NCBI RefSeq assembly: GCF_001735745.1
Contig: NZ_CP017260.1
Span: forward strand, 1,110,001-1,142,000
Direction of reading: 5' to 3'
DNA: 32,000 nt
DNA from: Formosa sp. Hel1_33_131
GTDB taxonomy: Bacteria > Bacteroidota > Bacteroidia > Flavobacteriales > Flavobacteriaceae
Within the stretch, counting starts at the first letter, position 1; every line of letters begins with the position of its first letter. The notes under the pieces were generated by a model. It made no database searches and was not told the origin of the DNA. It saw nothing but the letters and a program-made list of their open reading frames with translations. The position numbers were made by a program, and so were the translations under genes. Positions 108 through 7,492 of the stretch are shown piece after piece.

Positions 108-587
108 ATGAAACCCCAAACCGCCAAACAACTTACAGATGCCAATCAGAAAGCCCTAAAAGAGGGGAAACCAGTGCCCTACACCAAACAGCAGCACGCC
201 GCCGCCAAAGGTTGCGACCCCGATGCTAAAAGGTATTGGAACTTTTTTTTAAACGGCAGGGAAGCCTACACCAAAAAAGAATATGCCAATACCAAAGGAT
301 GTGATGCCCTAGCCGTAATCATATGGAATCGGCTTTTACCAGATGCAGAACCATTCAGCAAACAGGAATACAGCAACACCTATGGCTTGAGTGCTAAGGA
401 CTTCATTTTATGGAACGAATGCCTGCCAGATGCCGAACCATTCACCAAACAAGAATACAACATCACCTATGGTTTTAGTGCTAACAACTTAACATTGTGG
501 AACGAATGCCTACCAAATGCCGAACCATTCACCAAGGGTGAAATAAACGAATTGATTAAAGCAAATGACAACGAACACGCTACATAA
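108..587 (+). CDS. Hypothetical protein with four tandem ~29-aa repeats (K-Q/K-E-Y..G......WN..LPDAEPF-T/S)
   Basis: 159-aa ORF with an ATG start. The internal repeats KKEYANTKGCDALAVIIWNRLLPDAEPFS, KQEYSNTYGLSAKDFILWNECLPDAEPFT and KQEYNITYGFSANNLTLWNECLPNAEPFT are preceded by a degenerate fourth copy. GC is visibly higher (about 45%) than in the neighbouring cassettes (about 28%). I recognise no family. Confidence 0.6.
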   Translation: MKPQTAKQLTDANQKALKEGKPVPYTKQQHAAAKGCDPDAKRYWNFFLNGREAYTKKEYANTKGCDALAVIIWNRLLPDAEPFSKQEYSNTYGLSAKDFILWNECLPDAEPFTKQEYNITYGFSANNLTLWNECLPNAEPFTKGEINELIKANDNEHAT

Positions 588-727: not shown

Positions 728-1528
728 ATGAATTCTCTTTTAAAATTATATGAAACGTATTTAGACCTAAAAAAAGAGGATGATTTTGATTTTGACAAAT
801 TCAATCAATTTGCGATTGTTCATCACTCAAACTCAATTGAAGGATCTACACTTAGTAAGGAAGAAACTTATCTATTATTAAGCGAAAATTTAACCCCTAA
901 AAATAAACCCTTAGAGCATACGTTGATGGCTATTGATCATTATGCAGCTTTAAAATACGTGATTGGTTTAGCAGCGTCTAAAACAGAACTGTCCGATGTT
1001 ATTATTAGAAAAATAGCATCCTTAATAATGGATAAAACAGGCTCGGAAATATCGTCTATGGCAGGTAATTTTGATTCCTCAAAGGGGGATTACAGAAAAG
1101 TGACAGTGAGAGCGGGCAATACGACGTTTATGGATTACCAAAAAGTTCCAGAAAAAGTTAATGAGTTATTAAACTATATTAATGACACTATTAATACAGT
1201 AAAAGGGTTTCAACAAATCAATGAATTAGCTTTTGACGCCCACTTTCAGATGGTTTCAATTCATCCATTTGCGGATGGAAATGGAAGACTCAGTCGGCTT
1301 TTGATGAACTATGTACAGCACTACCATAAAATTCCGTTAACAGCGATCTATTTAGAAAACAAATCAGACTATTTTACGGCCTTAGAAGACACTCGAAATC
1401 AGAAAGACATTACTATTTTCAGGAAATTTATGTTTGATCAAACAACTAAAAATCTATTAGAAAAAATAGAGGAACTCTCTCAGAAACAAGTCTCAAAAAA
1501 GGGGAAAGGAATGAATTTTCTTTTTTAA
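728..1528 (+). CDS. Fic/DOC family protein (class II Fic, putative AMP-transferase)
   Basis: Carries the canonical Fic motif HPFADGNGRLSR (HxFx[D/E]GNGRxxR). An N-terminal auto-inhibitory motif SNSIEG ([S/T]xxxE[G/N]) sits on the same polypeptide. Confidence 0.9.
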   Translation: MNSLLKLYETYLDLKKEDDFDFDKFNQFAIVHHSNSIEGSTLSKEETYLLLSENLTPKNKPLEHTLMAIDHYAALKYVIGLAASKTELSDVIIRKIASLIMDKTGSEISSMAGNFDSSKGDYRKVTVRAGNTTFMDYQKVPEKVNELLNYINDTINTVKGFQQINELAFDAHFQMVSIHPFADGNGRLSRLLMNYVQHYHKIPLTAIYLENKSDYFTALEDTRNQKDITIFRKFMFDQTTKNLLEKIEELSQKQVSKKGKGMNFLF

Positions 1529-1552
1529 ATTATATTCGCTCAAAATACAATA
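1483..1552. repeat. 70-bp direct repeat, copy 1 (last 15 codons of Fic, its stop codon and 24 nt of 3' flank)
   Basis: Matches 4226-4295 with only 2 adjacent mismatches (AA at 1514-1515 versus CG at 4257-4258). The offset is 2743 bp. Confidence 0.9.
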
Positions 1553-1734
1553 GATTAATAGAAGGTTTTTTGCTGAAGACGGGACTTAGCTCCGCTGAGT
1601 CCCAGAACCAACATTTTGAGAAAAGCCGACGTCGTTCCATTATTTTCGAAACAAATGCTAATTTTTTGATCGTGCAGTGAAATAAAGCTTATAACTTAGG
1701 ATCTGCAAGAGGGCTAAGTGAAATTTTGTGAAGC
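1539..1734 (-). repeat. Repeat copy A: decayed copy of the tRNA operon terminator flank, tRNA-Leu and tRNA-Gly (pseudo-tRNA pair)
   Basis: 1539-1587 aligns to 4580-4627, and CTGAAGACGGGACTT is identical to the tRNA-Leu 3' end. Further right only scattered matches to tRNA-Leu and tRNA-Gly remain. 1582-1734 is about 94% identical to 2452-2604. Confidence 0.7.
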
Positions 1735-1786
1735 CTGAACAAGCTAACGTATAAAATTAGCTCCTATAAAACCCTTGATTAATATA

Positions 1787-1825
1787 AAAAATTAGTGTAA
1801 CTGTTTTTTAGTTACACTAATTTTT
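1787..1825. promoter_or_regulatory. Perfect 15-bp inverted repeat (AAAAATTAGTGTAAC / GTTACACTAATTTTT, 9-nt spacer) abutting the hicA promoter
   Basis: The arms at 1787-1801 and 1811-1825 are exact reverse complements. The repeat lies directly upstream of the TATATTTG box and the hicA ATG, so it is either an operator or a terminator-insulator. Confidence 0.5.
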
Positions 1826-1826
1826 A

Positions 1827-1834
1827 TATATTTG
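1827..1834 (+). promoter_or_regulatory. Candidate -7 promoter box TATATTTG for hicAB
   Basis: TATATTTG ends 3 nt before the ATG at 1838. This implies a leaderless or near-leaderless transcript if the box is functional. Confidence 0.3.
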
Positions 1835-1837
1835 TTT

Positions 1838-2077
1838 ATGAGTAAGACAGAAAAACTCTTAGAAAAATTTAAAAGTATTCCTAATGATTTAACGTGGGAT
1901 GAACTCGTTAAAATATTAAATTATTTGGGGTATTTTGAATTATCAAAAAAAGGTAAAACAGGGGGTTCTCGACGAAAATTTGTAAATGAACTAAAAGACG
2001 TTATAAATTTACATAAACCGCACCCTACTAAGATTATTAAAAAGTATATGATTAAGCAATTATTAGAAAAACTATAA
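1838..2077 (+). CDS. hicA: Type II toxin-antitoxin system toxin, HicA family (mRNA interferase)
   Basis: 79 aa. It shows the HicA-like pattern L..LGY....GGSRRKF......I.LHKPHP and sits immediately upstream of a HicB-like gene, which is the canonical hicA-hicB order. The ORF track starts at a TTG at 1832; the ATG at 1838 is preferred. Confidence 0.75.
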   Translation: MSKTEKLLEKFKSIPNDLTWDELVKILNYLGYFELSKKGKTGGSRRKFVNELKDVINLHKPHPTKIIKKYMIKQLLEKL

Positions 2078-2079
2078 TT

Positions 2080-2433
2080 ATGAAAAACACATTAGAATAT
2101 AAAGGCTATTTAGGAACTGTAGAATATAGTAACGAAGATAATTGTCTTTATGGAAAAATTATAGGAATAGATGATTTAGTTAATTATGAAGCTCAATCGG
2201 TTGAAGAATTAAACACCTATTTTAAGGAAGCTGTTGAAGATTATTTAGCGACTTGTAAAGAAGTAAACAAAGAACCAAATAAAACATTTAAAGGCGTCTT
2301 TAATGTTCGTACCTCTAAAGATAATCATAGAGCCTTATCAATGATCGCAGAAAAAAATAAGATGAAATTAAATGAAGTTATAAATAAAGCATTTGATTTC
2401 TTTATAACAAATGAAGATAAAGTATTAGGCTAA
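2080..2433 (+). CDS. hicB: Type II toxin-antitoxin system antitoxin, HicB family
   Basis: 117 aa. The N-terminal YKGYLGTVEYSNEDNCLYGKIIGIDDLVNYEAQSVEELNTYFKEAVEDYLATCKE is typical of HicB. The C-terminal FNVRTSKDNHRALSMIAEKNKMKLNEVINKA looks like a ribbon-helix-helix. It starts 2 nt after the hicA stop. Confidence 0.8.
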   Translation: MKNTLEYKGYLGTVEYSNEDNCLYGKIIGIDDLVNYEAQSVEELNTYFKEAVEDYLATCKEVNKEPNKTFKGVFNVRTSKDNHRALSMIAEKNKMKLNEVINKAFDFFITNEDKVLG

Positions 2434-2451
2434 ACTCCTAAAAAAAAGCTA

Positions 2452-2672
2452 GGACTTAGCTCCGCTGAATCCCAGAATCAACATTTTGAAAAAAGCCGAC
2501 GCCGCTGCATTATTTTCGAAACAAATGCTAATTTTTTGATTGTGCAGTGAAATAAAGCTTATAACTTAGGATCTACAAGAGGGCTAAGTGAAATTTTGTG
2601 AAGCTTACAAAGGACAGATGAAGATTAGCAAGAATTAAACAATTCATATTGTGATAAGCACATTCACTTAGG
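2452..2672 (-). repeat. Repeat copy B: decayed tRNA-Leu/tRNA-Gly copy plus an extension resembling the region upstream of tRNA-Gly
   Basis: 2452-2604 is about 94% identical to 1582-1734. 2563-2672 matches 3380-3490. GCAAGAATTAAACAATTC resembles GCAAATTTAATACAATTC at 4837-4854, upstream of the real tRNA-Gly. Confidence 0.7.
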
Positions 2673-2689
2673 GAAATAACATAAAAAAC

Positions 2690-2727
2690 ACATTATGTAT
2701 ATAATGTATAATTTGTATATTTGTATA
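2690..2727 (+). promoter_or_regulatory. Promoter/operator-like region of TA module 2: palindrome ACATTAT-gtat-ATAATGT, four phased TGTATA repeats and a TATATTTG -7 box
   Basis: TGTATA occurs at 2696, 2705, 2714 and 2722 (spacing 9, 9 and 8 nt). TATATTTG at 2716-2723 lies 17 nt upstream of the ATG at 2740. Confidence 0.35.
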
Positions 2728-2739
2728 AATAATTAACTT

Positions 2740-2988
2740 ATGAGAAAAAATATTGACATTGACGATAACGTTTTAAAAAAGTTAAAGTTCCTTTCTGCAG
2801 TTGAAGAAATTAGCGTTAAAAAGCTTATGGAAAAAGCAATTTCATTTTTTGTTGAATCCAAAGAAAAAGAACGTTTAAATTCCTTATCAGAAGAAGAAAA
2901 AGAAGATTTAGGACTTTTATTATTAATGCAACAATCGGACAGAAATGATATTGTTAGCGAAGAAGAAATTATGAAAGAACTTAGCTAA
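2740..2988 (+). CDS. Putative antitoxin (ribbon-helix-helix-like N-terminus, acidic C-terminus) of a RelE/ParE-type module
   Basis: 82-aa ORF whose stop overlaps the start of the downstream RelE/ParE-like toxin (TAATG, 1-nt overlap). The N-terminal KNIDIDDNVLKKLKFLSAVEEISVKKLMEKAI fits a beta-strand plus helix pattern. The assignment rests mainly on position. Confidence 0.6.
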   Translation: MRKNIDIDDNVLKKLKFLSAVEEISVKKLMEKAISFFVESKEKERLNSLSEEEKEDLGLLLLMQQSDRNDIVSEEEIMKELS

Positions 2989-3269
2989 TGAAAGTTATAT
3001 ATTTAAGGAGTTTCCTTTCTGATTTAAAAAAAATTAAAGATCAAAAAATTAAGAATAAAATTAAGATTTTGATTCTTGAAATTAAAGGAGCAAACCTATT
3101 AGAAGATGTTGAAAACATCAAAAAACTAAAAGGCTATTCTATGGCTTATAGATCACGAATTGGTGATTATAGAGTTGGAATGTATAAGGAATTTGAAAGT
3201 GTAGAGCTTGCACGTTTCGTAAAGCGAAATGATATATATAAGGTGTTTCCAAAAAAGGGGGCAAAATGA
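2988..3269 (+). CDS. Type II toxin-antitoxin system toxin, RelE/ParE family
   Basis: 93 aa. The family-typical pattern is F..DLKKI.....KI...I.......E...IKKLKG....YRSRIGDYRVGM.......L.RFVKRNDIYK. Confidence 0.8.
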   Translation: MKVIYLRSFLSDLKKIKDQKIKNKIKILILEIKGANLLEDVENIKKLKGYSMAYRSRIGDYRVGMYKEFESVELARFVKRNDIYKVFPKKGAK

Positions 3270-3280
3270 AAATAAACGTT

Positions 3281-3293
3281 TAAATAACCGATC
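3281..3293 (+). repeat. 13-nt motif TAAATAACCGATC downstream of the module 2 toxin (copy 1)
   Basis: An identical 13-mer recurs at 4184-4196. Each copy begins 12-14 nt after the stop of a RelE-superfamily toxin gene. Confidence 0.6.
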
Positions 3294-3379
3294 GTTGGCC
3301 TTGATCCACATAATGGTACAGGCTAATAATACAACCAAGGCTAATTTTTAAATAGTACTTTGAAACAAGCAAAGATTAG

Positions 3380-3490
3380 AACTTAGGATCTACAAGAGGG
3401 CTAAGTGAAAATTTTGTGAAGCTTACAAAGGACAGATGAAGATTAGCAAGAATTAAACAATTCTTAGTGTGACAAACACATTCACTTAAT
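3380..3490 (-). repeat. Repeat copy C: partial pseudo-tRNA-Gly plus the upstream-region extension
   Basis: Matches 2563-2672 with one 1-nt indel and a few mismatches. It contains GCAAGAATTAAACAATTCTTAG (3446-3467), which matches 17 of 22 positions of 4837-4858 upstream of the real tRNA-Gly. Confidence 0.7.
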
Positions 3491-3580
3491 GGAAAATAAA
3501 AAATTACTATAAAAGCTGCAAAAGGAAAAATAACACAAAATAATATTGTGATACTATTTGTATAACAGGGTGTTATTTTG

Positions 3581-3588
3581 TATTTTTG
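3581..3588 (+). promoter_or_regulatory. Candidate -7 promoter box TATTTTTG for TA module 3
   Basis: TAnnTTTG match 55 nt upstream of the ATG at 3643. Confidence 0.25.
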
Positions 3589-3642
3589 TTCTGTTCTTAA
3601 TTATGGATGTAATAAATATTAATTAATAGAATTTTTAGAATT

Positions 3643-3882
3643 ATGGGGAAAAAGGAAAGTTTCAAAGTTCAGACTGCTTTTAGGTTCGATCATGAACTTT
3701 TAGAGCTTGTCAGAGAGAAAGCGAAAGCACAGCGAAGAAGCCTCAATAATTATGTTGAGATATTAATGTTAAGGGATGTAGGTAACATTCCTAATGATGA
3801 AACCAAACAAGCCATAGAAGAGGCTAGAAATGGAAATTTGGGAACCATCGAAAACCTTGATAGATGGCTTGAAACACTTTAA
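3643..3882 (+). CDS. Putative ribbon-helix-helix antitoxin of a YafQ/RelE-type module
   Basis: 79 aa. FKVQTAFRFDHELLELVREKAKAQRRSLNNYVEILM fits an RHH (CopG/Arc-like) fold pattern. It ends 6 nt before the toxin gene. Confidence 0.7.
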   Translation: MGKKESFKVQTAFRFDHELLELVREKAKAQRRSLNNYVEILMLRDVGNIPNDETKQAIEEARNGNLGTIENLDRWLETL

Positions 3883-3888
3883 AATAAA

Positions 3889-4170
3889 ATGTACAAATTA
3901 GATTTTACAACTAAGTTTAAAAAGGATTTAAAAAAAATAAAAAGTAACAAAAAAGAATATGTACTTGCCGTTAAACTATTAAAAATCCTTGAAAAAGAAG
4001 GGGTTTTTGGAGTTCCAATAATTATGCGTCCCCACAAATTAACAGGAAATTATAAAGATAATTGGGAGTGTCATATCAAACCAGATTTGTTAATTATATG
4101 GGTTCAAATTGAAAATCCGAATACAGTTAAGCTCGTTAGAATAGGTTCTCATTCTGAATTATTTAAATAA
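3889..4170 (+). CDS. Type II toxin-antitoxin system toxin, YafQ/RelE family mRNA interferase
   Basis: 93 aa. It carries the family hallmarks F.KDLKKI, HKLTGNYKDNWECHIKPDLLIIW and VRIGSHSELF. Confidence 0.85.
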   Translation: MYKLDFTTKFKKDLKKIKSNKKEYVLAVKLLKILEKEGVFGVPIIMRPHKLTGNYKDNWECHIKPDLLIIWVQIENPNTVKLVRIGSHSELFK

Positions 4171-4183
4171 AAAACTTAAAATC

Positions 4184-4196
4184 TAAATAACCGATC
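4184..4196 (+). repeat. 13-nt motif TAAATAACCGATC downstream of the module 3 toxin (copy 2)
   Basis: Identical to 3281-3293. Confidence 0.6.
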
Positions 4197-4225
4197 AGAT
4201 AAACACTTAAATATACCGCTATGCG

Positions 4226-4271
4226 GAAACAAGTCTCAAAAAAGGGGAAAGGAATGCGTTTTCTTTTTTAA
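4226..4271 (+). pseudogene. Orphan 3'-terminal fragment of a Fic gene (encodes ..KQVSKKGKGMRFLF*)
   Basis: Near-identical to the last 15 codons plus stop codon of Fic (1483-1528). There is no upstream reading frame or start. Confidence 0.8.
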
Positions 4272-4295
4272 ATTATATTCGCTCAAAATACAATA
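4226..4295. repeat. 70-bp direct repeat, copy 2
   Basis: Matches 1483-1552 at 68 of 70 positions. Confidence 0.9.
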
Positions 4296-4346
4296 ACAGT
4301 AAAATCAATATTTTTTCTTCTTTAAAAACTCTTTTAACCTTCTTTG

Positions 4347-4354
4347 TATATTTG
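4347..4354 (+). promoter_or_regulatory. Orphan promoter-like box TATATTTG followed by a 10-bp palindrome AGGTTAACCT, with no ORF downstream
   Basis: TGTATATTTGTTTAGG here parallels TATATATTTGTTTATG at the hicA start (1825-1840), but ATG is replaced by AGG. The palindrome is at 4358-4367. Confidence 0.25.
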
Positions 4355-4419
4355 TTTAGGTTAACCTGTTTGTAGGCTCCTGTAAACTATTGTAAGTCAA
4401 GGTTTTAAAGAGAGTTATT

Positions 4420-4467
4420 TGTCAAGTTTATGACATTATTTATATTGAAATGTGTCAAGTTTATGAC
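4420..4467. repeat. Two exact copies of the 15-mer TGTCAAGTTTATGAC (internal GTCA-N6-TGAC dyad), 33 bp apart
   Basis: The copies lie at 4420-4434 and 4453-4467 in non-coding DNA. This is an iteron- or operator-like arrangement. Confidence 0.6.
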
Positions 4468-4564
4468 GTTGTAAAATGGAGAACAAAATTAAGAAGGCTA
4501 AATATTATTTTAATTAATGCTAATTCAGATCCAATAAAATAAATATTGCCCTTTTTATTGCCCT

Positions 4565-4604
4565 AAAAAATAAAAACCTCTCAAAATCAATAGATTAAGA
4601 GAGG
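4565..4604 (-). terminator. Rho-independent terminator of the tRNA-Gly/tRNA-Leu operon
   Basis: On the minus strand the hairpin is CCTCTC-tt-AATC-tatt-GATT-tt-GAGAGG, followed by TTTTTATTTTTT. It lies directly after the tRNA-Leu 3' end. Confidence 0.65.
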
Positions 4605-4610
4605 CTTTTG

Positions 4611-4694
4611 TACTGAAGACGGGACTTGAACCCGTACGTCCCAAGGGACATTGGATTTTAAGTCCAACGTGTCTACCAATTCCACCACTTCAGC
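4611..4694 (-). tRNA. tRNA-Leu (anticodon UAA), class II with a long variable arm
   Basis: The minus strand reads GCTGAAG-TG-GTGGAATTGGTAGACAC-G-TTGGA-CTTAAAA-TCCAA-TGTCCCTTGGGACGT-ACGGG-TTCAAGT-CCCGT-CTTCAGT-A. The cloverleaf folds, and CCA is not encoded. Confidence 0.9.
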
Positions 4695-4723
4695 ATCTTG
4701 GTATGTTTTAAAAAAAGTATCAG

Positions 4724-4795
4724 AGCGAAAGACGAGATTTGAACTCGCGACCCCCACCTTGGCAAGGTGATGCTCTACCCCTGAGCTACTTTCGC
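4724..4795 (-). tRNA. tRNA-Gly (anticodon GCC)
   Basis: The minus strand reads GCGAAAG-TA-GCTC-AGGGGTA-GAGC-A-TCACC-TTGCCAA-GGTGG-GGGTC-GCGAG-TTCAAAT-CTCGT-CTTTCGC-T. Confidence 0.9.
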
Positions 4796-4882
4796 AATTT
4801 TTTAATGAACGTTTCTCTACTATTGTATAGAGAGGTGCAAATTTAATACAATTCTTAGAATAGCAAAGTTTTTTTAAACTTT

Positions 4883-7492
4883 TTATGCTCTTTTCTTTTT
4901 GGTCAACATCCGCTTGATTTCATTCAATTTCATCAAGGCCTCAACGGGTGTCAACGTATCAATATCAATCGCCTCTATATCAGATTTTAAAGCCTCTAGC
5001 ATGGGATCATCCAAATTAAAAAAGCTCAGTTGCATCTCACTGTCCAAGTCTTTGACTTTGGCCGTCAGCTCATCGCTCGAATGTGATTTCTCCAGCTGCT
5101 TCAGGATTTGTTGCGCCCGGTGTAAGACCTGTGGTGGCATCCCTGCCATTTTTGCCACATGAATCCCAAAACTGTGGTGACTACCACCCTTTACCAGAGT
5201 TCTTAAAAACAAGACATTGTCTTTCAGTTCTTTGACAGACACATTGTAATTTTTAATGCGGTCAAAGGTTTCCGTCATTTCATTCAACTCATGGTAGTGG
5301 GTTGCAAATAAGGTTTTGGCATGTGAGGGATGTTCGTGCAAGTATTCGCTAATCGCCCAGGCAATTGAAATCCCGTCGTAGGTACTCGTCCCCCGACCAA
5401 TTTCATCCAACAGCACCAAACTACGTTCCGACACATTGTTTAAGATGGAAGCGGTTTCATTCATCTCCACCATAAAGGTCGATTCGCCCATCGAAATATT
5501 ATCACTCGCCCCTACCCTTGTAAAAAGCTTGTCGATCAATCCGATACGCGCACTTTTGGCGGGCACAAAACTCCCAATTTGAGCCAGGAGTACAATCAAA
5601 GCCGTTTGGCGTAAAATAGCTGACTTACCAGACATATTAGGCCCTGTAATCATAATGATTTGCTGGGTATCTCGGTCTAAAAACACATCATTCGCCACAT
5701 AGGATTCCCCCAACGGCAACTGCTTTTCAATCACCGGATGACGTCCTTGTTTGATATCCAAATCAAAAGAGGCATCTATTTCTGGATACACATAATTATT
5801 TTGTTGTGCCAAATGCGCAAAAGACCCCAAGCAATCCAATTGTGCAATCAGTTGTGCATTTTGCTGTACCTGTAAAATGTAGGAATGCATCCAAAGAACC
5901 AGCTCAGAAAACAGCGTTTGTTCGATGACTAAAATACGGTCTTCAGCGCCTAATATTTTACTTTCATACTCTTTGAGTTCTTCCGTAATATAACGTTCCG
6001 CATTGACCAGTGTTTGTTTTCGAATCCACGTTTCTGGCACCTTGTCTTTGTGTGAATTTCGAACTTCAATATAATAGCCAAATACATTATTGGAGGCGAT
6101 TTTGAGCGATGTAATCCCAGTTGACGCACTCTCACGTTCCAACATTTTATTTAAATAATCTTTCCCTGAAAATGCAATCGCACGCAAACTTTCCAATTCT
6201 TCAGAAGCAGAAGAGGCGATGCTATTTCCTTTCAGAATATTTACAGGCGCATCTTCATTAAGCGTTTCTTTTATTTTTTCTCGCAACAACTCACAACTTT
6301 GAATCTGCTCGCCAATGCGTTTTAAATCTTCATTTTCACAGTTAGATGCCAAGGCTTTGATGGGCACAATGGCTTCCAAAGAGTTTTTTAAGTGCACCAC
6401 TTCACGTGGATTCACTTTGGCGGTGGCTACTTTTGAGATCAGGCGCTCCAAATCGCCCACTTGTTTGATATAGTTTTGTGTTTTCTGAAGCGCTACTTCA
6501 TTGTCCAAAAAATACTGCACCACTTCGTGACGCGCTTTTATTTTTTCTTGTGATTTTAAGGGCAATGCCAACCAACGTTTTAACAAACGTCCACCCATCG
6601 GTGAAATCGTGTGATCGATCACATCTATTAAGGTTACGGCATTGGCATTAGTCGAATGGTAAAGCTCTAAATTTCGGATGGTAAACTTATCCATCCACAC
6701 ATAATCACCTTCTAAAATACGCTCAATGGCGGTAATGTGTTGCAGCTTGTGGTGCTGAGTTTCCCCCAAATAATGCATGATCGCGCCAGAAGCCACCACT
6801 CCTTGCGCCAAGGCTTCAATTCCAAAGCCTTTAAGGGTTTTGGTCTGAAAATGCTTACAAAGCGTTTCGTTCGCATAATCATCCTGAAACACCCAATCTT
6901 CTAAATAGAAGGTGTGGAAATTAGCACCAAAAGTGTCATTAAAAATACTTCGTTTTTGTTTTTCTATGAGGACTTCACTCGGGTTAAAATTTTGAAGGAG
7001 TTTACCTATATATTCAGCCGAACCTTGTGCTGTGAGAAATTCTCCCGTAGAAACATCTAAAAATGCCACGCCGATTGTTTTTCCAAAATACACCGCCGCT
7101 AAAAAATTATTAGTTTTAGAACTTAAAACCTCATCATTCAACGCCACACCTGGCGTGACGAGTTCCGTAACCCCACGTTTCACAATCGATTTGGTGAGTT
7201 TTGGATCTTCTAATTGGTCACAAATCGCGACCCGCTCCCCTGCTTTGACCAATTTTGGCAAATAGGTATTGAGCGAATGGTGCGGAAATCCCGCCAATTC
7301 GGTTTCACTTTCGCTGCCTGCGCCGCGTTTGGTTAAAATAATATCTAATATTTTGGACGCCTTGACGGCATCACTTCCAAAAGTTTCATAAAAGTCGCCC
7401 ACCCGAAATAATAGCAACGCATCAGGGTACTTGACCTTGATGGCATTGTATTGTTTCATTAAAGGAGTGACTTTCTTCGTTTTATTTGCCAA
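4883..7492 (-). CDS. mutS: DNA mismatch repair protein MutS
   Basis: 869 aa. N-terminal TPLMKQY...FYRVGDFYE-like mismatch-binding motif ([12 protein letters not shown]), Walker A GPNMSGKS, and [12 protein letters not shown]. Confidence 0.97.

Follow-up and report, generated by a model that had tools for sequence, protein, structure and literature searches.

The locus described here raises the question of how a row of three small toxin–antitoxin (TA) modules, set apart by repeated stretches of non-coding DNA, came to lie beside a tRNA-Leu gene of Formosa sp. Hel1_33_131, and by what means its members are exchanged. The row occupies positions 1483–4858 of a stretch of 32,000 nucleotides (contig NZ_CP017260.1), referred to below as the window, and coordinates given without a contig name are those of the window. 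The reading preferred here, with a probability of roughly one half, is that the row represents the tRNA-Leu-proximal part of a decayed islet without an integrase, one that was seeded by an integrase and is now reshuffled mainly by homologous recombination. Modules and separators have been reassorted both between co-occurring strains and between species, the TA modules being autonomous units with stable edges; the separators have undergone gene conversion among themselves, and some of the junctions lie at microhomologies. The sequence examined comprises ~40 kb of the source species, compared with contigs from metagenomes (designated by L numbers). The main parts of the row are as follows:

728–1528, plus strand: Fic-domain gene (266 amino acids; Pfam Fic, E 5e-17), the left flank of the array
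1582–1790, plus strand: separator A, composed of a hairpin-containing part L1 (1582–1640), the core M (1641–1734) and the right arm "alpha" (1735–1790)
1787–2447, plus strand: HicAB module, with a hairpin, a promoter box at 1827, hicA (1838–2077) and hicB (2080–2433)
2452–2700, plus strand: separator B, composed of L1, M and the right arm "beta"
2716–3269, plus strand: module of a ribbon–helix–helix (RHH) antitoxin and a RelE/ParE-like toxin, with a promoter box at 2716 and genes at 2740–2988 and 2988–3269
3270–3503, plus strand: separator C, which has another left part (L2), followed by M and beta
3581–4170, plus strand: module of an RHH antitoxin and a YafQ toxin, with a promoter box at 3581 and genes at 3643–3882 and 3889–4170
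4610–4694, minus strand: tRNA-Leu(UAA), intact (ARAGORN; Rfam, 62.5 bits), the anchor of the islet

Concerning the modules, two small adjoining or overlapping genes with toxin and antitoxin domains are found, as in type II TA systems. The first pair is recognized by Pfam HicA (E 6e-11) and HicB (E 3e-12), and the toxin of the third by Pfam YafQ_toxin (E 3e-25) and NCBIfam RelE_StbE (E 4e-18), its partner being an Arc/RHH-like antitoxin; the middle pair gives weak Pfam matches only, below the cut-off (Antitox_RHH, E 0.005; ParE_toxin, E 0.007). HicA/HicB, YafQ with its Arc-like RHH partner and the MazE/PemK pair of the variant strains described below all match Pfam or NCBIfam. The middle module, including its promoter region (2681–3267), shares 71.8% nucleotide identity with positions 84471–85053 of NZ_CP033935.1, a plasmid of Chryseobacterium balustinum, on which the homologue is annotated as a RelE/ParE toxin and adjoins a 201-aa recombinase-family gene. 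Each cassette has a TAnnTTTG box of its own, as the original prediction—made from the letters of this DNA—had stated; the boxes at 1827, 2716 and 3581 lie, respectively, 11, 24 and 62 nt 5' of the first start codon, and a fourth, orphan box is found at 4347. The HicAB module begins with a perfect 16-bp inverted repeat (1787–1825), directly 5' of the hicA promoter box, that marks its constant left edge in all three array types and may be an operator or a terminator. It can be added that three toxins of unrelated type have the motif TAAATAACCG(A/G)T behind their stop codons, namely the RelE-like one (3283–3295), YafQ (4186–4198) and MazF/PemK (~12358 of contig L011).

The spacers had been predicted to form one overlapping repeat family, and this was borne out: the family spans A 1582–1734, B 2452–2685 and C 3371–3503, with 95% identity between A 1582–1734 and B 2452–2604 (153 nt), 88% identity between B 2591–2685 and C 3409–3503, and a core present in three copies (1684–1727, 2554–2597 and 3371–3414) whose register is shifted by one base. 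A 29-nt core occurs three times in the window against an expectation of 0, and the nhmmer profile of the separators recovers A at E 6e-64. A dispersed element of the REP/MITE type would be expected in many copies across the genome, with terminal inverted repeats and target duplications; there are three copies per locus and none elsewhere within the window. A scan of Joint Genome Institute metagenomes for the core returned six contigs, all from the tRNA-Leu islet; searches of GTDB representatives, plasmids and phages with the separator gave 0 matches, and two junction patterns gave 0 matches in IMG/VR. The sole IMG/VR match to the tRNA 3' end was discarded as an unrelated phage-encoded tRNA-Leu.

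An alignment of six copies shows the separators to be mosaics: window A is composed of L1, M and alpha, window B of L1, M and beta, and window C of L2, M and beta, whereas the C copy of the variant with mazEF consists of L2, M' and alpha'. Since the copies combine different parts, the breakpoints lie at three or more different places. Copies within one genome share derived states, and gene conversion among the separators is thus indicated: at alignment column 144 the base is T in window A and B and G in each of the variant's three copies, and the variant's separator A carries the CAAGC insert of C. Which right arm is present, alpha or beta, goes with the downstream module. M lies between the halves of a 9-bp inverted repeat (GCTAATTTT...AAAATTAGC), the homology extending beyond it.

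Fuller separators are known from related contigs and consist of three parts: first a copy of the native tRNA-Leu terminator and 3' flank that has GTAC as its end, then the core M of ~110 bp and finally one of the two right arms. In contig L121, which carries a Fic allele of 95% identity, the full form runs from L1 through a hairpin (GCCGAAAC-loop-GTTTCGGC) and TTTTCATCTGTAC to ACCCCATTG... at the start of M; compared with it, window A and B lack ~40 nt, comprising the hairpin of the terminator as well as GTAC and the first part of M, so that most of their terminator part has been lost. What comes after CTTTTCATCTGTAC is, in at least nine contigs and with two independent alleles of the flank, the real tRNA-Leu in some cases and the beginning of M in others. 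This hairpin with its GTAC serves natively as the terminator of tRNA-Leu in Winogradskyella, and the fuller separators therefore hold a copy of DNA from the tRNA locus; to judge from these sequences, the copied part is the terminator flank with the last three bases of the tRNA (GTAC), not the tRNA genes.

The evidence for reassortment comes from the comparison of related contigs. It should be noted that the order mutS–tRNA-Gly–tRNA-Leu is conserved across Flavobacteriaceae and that beyond tRNA-Leu nothing is shared with other genera; the identity of MutS to Algibacter, Winogradskyella, Xanthomarina and some metagenome-assembled genomes is at most 81–84%, there being no close GTDB representative. 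Three array types plus sub-variants are seen among the related contigs. In contigs from the same samples, the third cassette is RHH/yafQ in some and ORF114 (ORF, open reading frame) with mazE/mazF and a 34-aa ORF in others, the two forms diverging from ~3377, inside separator C. The mazEF variants possess a 209-bp Fic remnant, which matches window 1326–1534 (the 3' end of Fic) at 92.8% identity, and a different terminator beside tRNA-Leu. With respect to the left flank, the mazEF contig L001 (99.4%) is closer to the window than the yafQ contig L002 (98.9%), and the polymorphism is therefore not tied to the genomic background. Individual metagenome samples contain both variants, on contigs of 140–560 kb (L001–L020; ENA ERZ10646642, -43, -49, -54 and -78).

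An exchange between species is seen in contigs L116 and L114, two of the six returned by the metagenome scan, and in L117, with three assemblies in agreement, in which a mazEF-type array of 98.4% identity lies between DUF1501/DUF1800 and a Kelch-like gene (Kelch429). The outer separator is only 82% identical in this context, and the exchanged block extends from ~1778 to the tRNA boundary. This context was read first as a transposed copy; since in Maribacter DUF1501/DUF1800 lie 2–4 kb from tRNA-Leu, it more likely represents the orthologous hotspot of another species, which would have imported the block of the array by homologous replacement at that hotspot. The third array type (L128, L129 and L130–L132), reached through a yafQ allele of 96% identity, starts with a terminator and a tRNA 3' scar, a Kelch-like gene, a PTL_trimer gene and an isolated copy of M, and continues with a Fib_succ gene, hicAB, a separator, yafQ and tRNA-Leu. 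In L128 and L129, hicAB and yafQ follow each other with no RelE cassette between them, and a 38-nt tail of RelE is found beyond yafQ, fused to a Fic remnant at the microhomology CAAAAAAGGGG. Both the content and the order of the cassettes vary, since the RelE cassette is missing and its tail lies on the far side of yafQ. The modules keep their edges, HicAB (~1787–2447) in three different neighbourhoods and YafQ (~3432–4248) in several. The original prediction had held an identical arrangement in all relatives to be fatal to it, and that objection falls away because the cassette content varies among related genomes.

These same comparisons bear on a purely local history, in which one TA cassette with its upstream region was duplicated in tandem on the spot and then replaced and decayed, without any mobility. 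It would explain why neighbouring separators share different sub-segments (A and B the left part and the core, B and C the core and the right arm) and why the separators evolve in concert. Against it stand the unrelated families of the three TA pairs, the differences in cassette content and order between lineages, and the presence of individual modules beside other neighbours and in further species. Deletion alone would hardly yield the variants, given the permuted place of the RelE remnant. The variant arrays contradict such a history, and it is regarded as improbable.

Several observations on the surroundings of the arrays can be placed here. Kelch-repeat membrane proteins of 429–437 aa, with 39–70% mutual identity and a conserved C-terminal segment, are encoded in all three islet types (L002 4782–6095, L116 11483–12772 and L128 515–1825), their position relative to the TA row being different. 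When homologues of Fic were used to look for an empty site, the 95% allele, on a 1-kb contig, already had the scar and a separator, and the 71% homologues stood in unrelated contexts. Homologues of YafQ at 74–78% identity were solitary modules or belonged to another TA-rich cluster with a resolvase, and no separators accompanied them. One of these, a 78% homologue on the 6.5-kb contig L145 (Logan SRR25760724), lies in a one-directional cluster of small gene pairs with DUF6036, a resolvase, AbiEii/DUF6922 and several pairs of 50–105 aa, from which the separators studied here are absent.

The part played by an integrase is suggested by the two ends of the row, where the following features are found:

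1483–1572, plus strand: left copy of the outer repeat, the Fic 3' end followed by a decayed copy of the tRNA-Leu terminator (T_Y type)
1573–1587, plus strand: displaced tRNA-Leu 3' end, an attachment-site (att) type scar identical to 4613–4627, at the left edge of the TA array
4226–4295, plus strand: Fic 3' remnant from a different Fic allele, part of the right copy of the outer repeat
4296–4582, plus strand: non-coding insert "Z" of 289 bp within the terminator region, flanked by CTCAAAATACAATA and CTCAAAATCAATA, with no ORF
4583–4609, minus strand: hairpin terminator (T_Y type) of the tRNA operon, predicted to be functional

The similarity of the block at 1539–1587 to 4580–4627, noticed in the original prediction, was confirmed, with 84% identity between 1543–1587 and 4583–4627 and with the 15-mer CTGAAGACGGGACTT, the tRNA-Leu 3' end from the middle of the T-loop to the acceptor end, present twice in the window (1573–1587 and 4613–4627) against 0.02 expected copies. 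A further repeat, not spelled out there, pairs 1483–1552 with 4226–4295 (70 nt, 97% identity) and represents the Fic 3' end, the last 46 nt of the Fic gene falling within it. The two repeat pairs thus make up a single outer repeat consisting of the Fic 3' end, the terminator and the tRNA 3' end, the right copy of which is interrupted by the 289-bp insert. The remnant at 4226–4295 shares residues with the 95% Fic allele P0122. The loop of the T_Y terminator, AAAATCAAnnGATTAA, is native at tRNA-Leu in Xanthomarina, Maribacter and others, homologous T_Y terminators abutting tRNA-Leu in other genera.

Two side observations concern the terminator region. The insert contains two copies of TGTCAAGTTTATGAC (4420 and 4452) besides the orphan promoter box, and its copy in contig L001 is diverged by ~15%, a figure judged by eye on the alignment. 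The insert may represent a small RNA or what is left of a lost cassette. In Winogradskyella, the stem of the tRNA-Leu terminator is GCCGAAAC...GTTTCGGC in L023 (12908–12955) and GTCGAAAC...GTTTCGAC in L022 (12906–12952), and this compensatory change between two species supports the function of the terminator hairpin.

Every contig of the main type has three copies of ACGGGACTT, that of the real tRNA and two displaced ones, and the displaced copies all end in ...ACTT/AG, each with a different right-hand partner. The copy at window 1579 continues with AGCTCC..., and the third copy, ~6 kb further left and outside the window, next to a Kelch-like gene, continues with AGTTTAAA...; 5' of the latter lies a 130-bp copy of the Fic promoter together with the first 41 nt of the gene. 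The three tRNA-Leu 3' ends, displaced and real, delimit nested islands, and, as in islands inserted at tRNA genes, the inserted DNA lies between directly repeated tRNA 3' ends while tRNA-Leu itself is intact. Displaced copies ending in ACTT/AG fit the pattern that integrases of the T-loop sublocation class, reportedly described by Williams (2002), leave.

Taken as a sequence of events, an insertion of the integrase type at the 3' end of tRNA-Leu would have seeded the islet, and it would later have grown and turned over mainly as incoming DNA recombined with it, through the homologous recombination of the host, at the repeated separators and the conserved tRNA flank. Exchange could have taken place by double crossover or by a single crossover of the Campbell type with circles formed by looping-out between a pair of separators; illegitimate deletions at microhomologies may have trimmed the array and added to its turnover. 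The accretion originally proposed survives here in so far as it spoke of a modular TA row without an integrase, of repeats from the tRNA locus and of variable content, and Campbell-type insertion is plausible through a segment resembling the tRNA locus (the terminator flank plus GTAC seen in relatives); the separators as pseudo-tRNA operons, and with them the copying of the whole operon, had to be given up.

The whole-operon version deserves to be weighed explicitly. The genes involved, with the neighbour to their right, are, besides tRNA-Leu, the following:

4723–4795, minus strand: tRNA-Gly(GCC), intact (ARAGORN, Rfam)
4883–7492, minus strand: mutS

According to that version, Campbell insertions occurred repeatedly, and every spacer descends from a copy of the complete ~290-bp tRNA-Leu/tRNA-Gly operon that has since decayed. 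Smith–Waterman local scores of A and B against the tRNA genes were 17 versus 18.2±2.3 and 20 versus 19.0±2.7 for shuffled sequences; with sensitive scoring they were 104 versus 103.5±14.8 and 91 versus 103.7, and an anchored semi-global alignment likewise remained at chance level. The Rfam tRNA model at E≤10 found only the two real tRNAs in 6 kb as well as in pieces of 311–551 nt, and the nhmmer profile of the separators had no match to ~75 real tRNA-Gly and tRNA-Leu loci. The scattered matches to the tRNA genes that had been listed for A and B beyond the 15-nt block are therefore at the level of chance in alignments, Rfam search and profile alike. Of the AT-rich match of 17 in 22 positions upstream of tRNA-Gly, the part concerning C is borderline (reached by 2 of 500 shuffles) and that concerning B is not distinguishable from chance (177 of 500). 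Uniform decay, moreover, cannot leave 15 perfect bases beside ~40% identity. In favour of the operon copies, M in the fuller separators sits where tRNA-Leu sits relative to terminator and GTAC, and a genuine partial pseudo-tRNA-Gly (25 nt plus a decayed remainder) does exist in the variant strain, between tRNA-Leu and tRNA-Gly of L011 (13052–13163).

The absence of tRNA likeness beyond the flank block, which the original prediction had itself set down as speaking against it, is thus what the alignments and the covariance-model search returned; the reading is largely refuted and retains very little probability, only the 15–18-nt 3' end and the terminator being derived from the tRNA locus. A tRNA origin of the spacers was rejected on the alignments against shuffles, the Rfam model and the spacer profile against the ~75 loci, and the core M is not detectably tRNA-derived. 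As to the pseudo-tRNA-Gly of L011, it is made up of a copy of the 25-nt tRNA-Gly 3' end, the GC-rich palindrome CTGCCTGCCGGCAGGCAGG and decayed tRNA-Gly-like sequence, and a palindrome related to CTGCCTGCCGGCAGGCAGG occurs in the right end of the variant (~L011 12806–12832).

The original prediction had seen no integrase or transposase nearby and had pointed to the upstream sequence as the place to look for a recombinase; its observation holds and can be extended, since no member of the Phage_integrase, Resolvase or transposase families is found among the ORFs of the 32-kb window, and no recombinase in the 10 kb upstream, as known from near-identical metagenome contigs, none lying within ~37 kb. 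No integrase thus lies within or beside the island, where one is expected for a genomic island.

A different explanation, considered unlikely but deserving attention, is that of an active integron-like platform, in which cassettes composed of M, right arm, TA module and terminator flank would be inserted at the tRNA-Leu 3' end by a tyrosine recombinase acting in trans. Its att site would be the flank-GTAC-M junction, and the row would have been built by tandem accretion. It would account for the precision with which flank and GTAC are followed by tRNA-Leu or by the start of M in many contigs and with both flank alleles, for the variation of the tRNA-proximal cassette within the population, and for the discrete edges of the HicAB and YafQ modules in different neighbourhoods; the displaced tRNA 3' ends show events of the integrase type at the locus, and Flavobacteriales are known to possess IntN1-like integrases with tRNA genes as targets (PMC6764341). 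On the other hand, there is no recombinase within the ~37 kb, the yafQ/mazEF swap starts within the M part of separator C, ~60 nt rightward of the GTAC-like site there, and the recent exchange in the DUF1800 context starts at ~1778, not at GTAC. The separators are mosaics with several breakpoints and gene conversion, window A and B are devoid of the putative core, no dyad-symmetric core is evident around GTAC, and the flank homology of 45–75 nt is just what RecA would use.

Likewise unlikely is the proposal that the separators (terminator flank-GTAC-M) could be the att sites of miniature TA cassettes moved by a distant tRNA-Leu-specific recombinase. A recombinase acting in trans keeps some probability in view of the sharp junctions and of the variability of the tRNA-proximal cassette; it is disfavoured because the breakpoints are scattered, the edges of the recent exchanges lie off the site and the putative core has been lost in A and B.

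It should be pointed out here which observations weigh against an islet reshuffled mainly by homologous recombination. No circular intermediates were seen, and no completely empty site was found among the related contigs. The ACTT/AG and GTAC/M junctions are sharp and recurrent, as site-specific recombination leaves them, although homologous recombination inside shared flanks would give the same sharp junctions, and the polymorphic cassette is the tRNA-proximal one, as site-specific accretion predicts. Both the distribution of the separators and the absence of an integrase rest on the ~40 kb of the source species.

Other identities of the separator were considered as well. A degenerate integron, i.e. 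a cluster of attC sites lacking an integron integrase (CALIN), would resemble the locus in that its small cassettes, TA systems among them, form a row without an integrase, like sedentary chromosomal integrons (PMC4889954, PMC13108822). A search for R'' (RYYYAAC)...R' (GTTRRRY) pairs on either strand yielded 0 against 0.74 expected, and the separators have no long inverted repeat and no imperfect palindrome such as the one of 57–141 nt that characterizes attC. Their folding, compared with shuffles, is mostly near zero (z −0.45 and +1.0), the plus strands of B and C reaching z of about −2.2 and −2.4, so that most strands fold no better than shuffles. Integron cassettes are mostly promoterless and depend on Pc for expression, whereas each cassette here has its own promoter box 11–62 nt 5' of the first gene. 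The motif test and the folding together exclude attC sites, and a CALIN is hardly credible. A structured RNA was rejected on the RNAalifold results for six copies on both strands (−10.3 and −5.4 kcal/mol, with a covariation term of the wrong sign), and no Rfam family comes near its threshold on the separators. A coding remnant was likewise dismissed, there being no ORF of at least 40 aa and a 24-aa minus-strand ORF in B not being conserved in C; TTAGCTCC, present in three copies in the array, was discarded as a recombination core, the junctions not lying consistently on it.

The array was also compared with known systems. The element NBU1 integrates at the 3' end of tRNA-Leu in Bacteroides. 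Like accreted and decayed tRNA islands, the present locus has an intact tRNA at one end, displaced tRNA 3' ends as direct repeats, strain-variable content and a TA-rich cargo; an example of a tRNA-anchored island is the 10K island of Riemerella anatipestifer at tRNA-Arg, with an IntN1-like integrase (PMC6764341). The array differs from such islands in being without an integrase and in having segments of only 0.7–1.2 kb, and its inner boundaries are separators of ~150–300 bp, combining the terminator flank with an unrelated core, rather than tRNA 3' fragments. The cis-mobilizable elements (CIMEs) known from the accretion and mobilization of streptococcal integrative and conjugative elements are integrase-less, att-bounded tandem segments at the 3' end of a tRNA or another gene that can be moved by a related integrase. 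The array could be likened to them as integrase-less tandem segments at a tRNA with candidate att-like bounds, and the recurrent flank-GTAC/M junctions would be compatible with CIME-like cassettes mobilized in trans; in contrast to CIMEs, no helper element or integrase has been identified for this array, and the putative core is deleted in the window copies.

The pdif modules of Acinetobacter plasmids are discrete units, often TA systems, bounded by short sites and moved by a distant housekeeping recombinase. Discrete TA units between repeated sequences are common to both, but inspection of the array by eye revealed no Xer-type site of 28 bp (11-6-11), its direct repeats are long, and it is chromosomal and linked to a tRNA. 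With integron and CALIN arrays, in which TA cassettes with their own promoters stabilize the array (PMC4889954, PMC13108822) and to which it is close by analogy only, it shares the one-directional row of small cassettes, a repeated non-coding separator, the prominence of TA modules and the lack of a nearby integrase; it differs in separators that have neither R''/R' boxes nor a hairpin and are 2–3 times longer than attC, in a promoter on every cassette, and in its anchor, which is a tRNA and not attI. The claim that no such system had been described does not hold in general, the array resembling decayed tRNA-anchored islands built by accretion; in the literature searched, no array was found described whose cassettes alternate with separators carrying an embedded copy of the tRNA terminator flank.

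As far as the wider surroundings are concerned, all ORFs of at least 100 aa in the remaining 27 kb of the window belong to housekeeping functions (ClpP, trigger factor, PdxJ, NAD kinase, UppS, BamA, OmpH and type IX secretion cargo). To the left, window 108–587 contains a 159-aa ORF with internal 87-bp tandem repeats (178–535) and no Pfam or NCBIfam match, the gene of which is duplicated ~3.2 kb upstream in contigs of the main type (L002 6188–6667 and 9381–9860), the two copies flanking a block of Fic491 and a helix-turn-helix gene.

The process underlying the formation of this islet—island accretion, decay and homologous reshuffling—is familiar and does not constitute a new principle. Judged from the general biology of their families, the TA modules probably stabilize the islet, act in defence, or do both. 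The co-occurrence of the yafQ and mazEF forms represents a strain-level polymorphism that could be tracked over a time series. If the separators proved to be recombination sites, they would define a second kind of gene-cassette platform besides integrons and, were they att sites, one that is tRNA-anchored, independent of attC and at home in marine Flavobacteriaceae. The locus records natural, co-occurring strains turning over small TA modules at a tRNA hotspot without a local recombinase, and it shows that the cargo can be accompanied by copies of the terminator flank of that tRNA, which can supply the homology for re-insertion.

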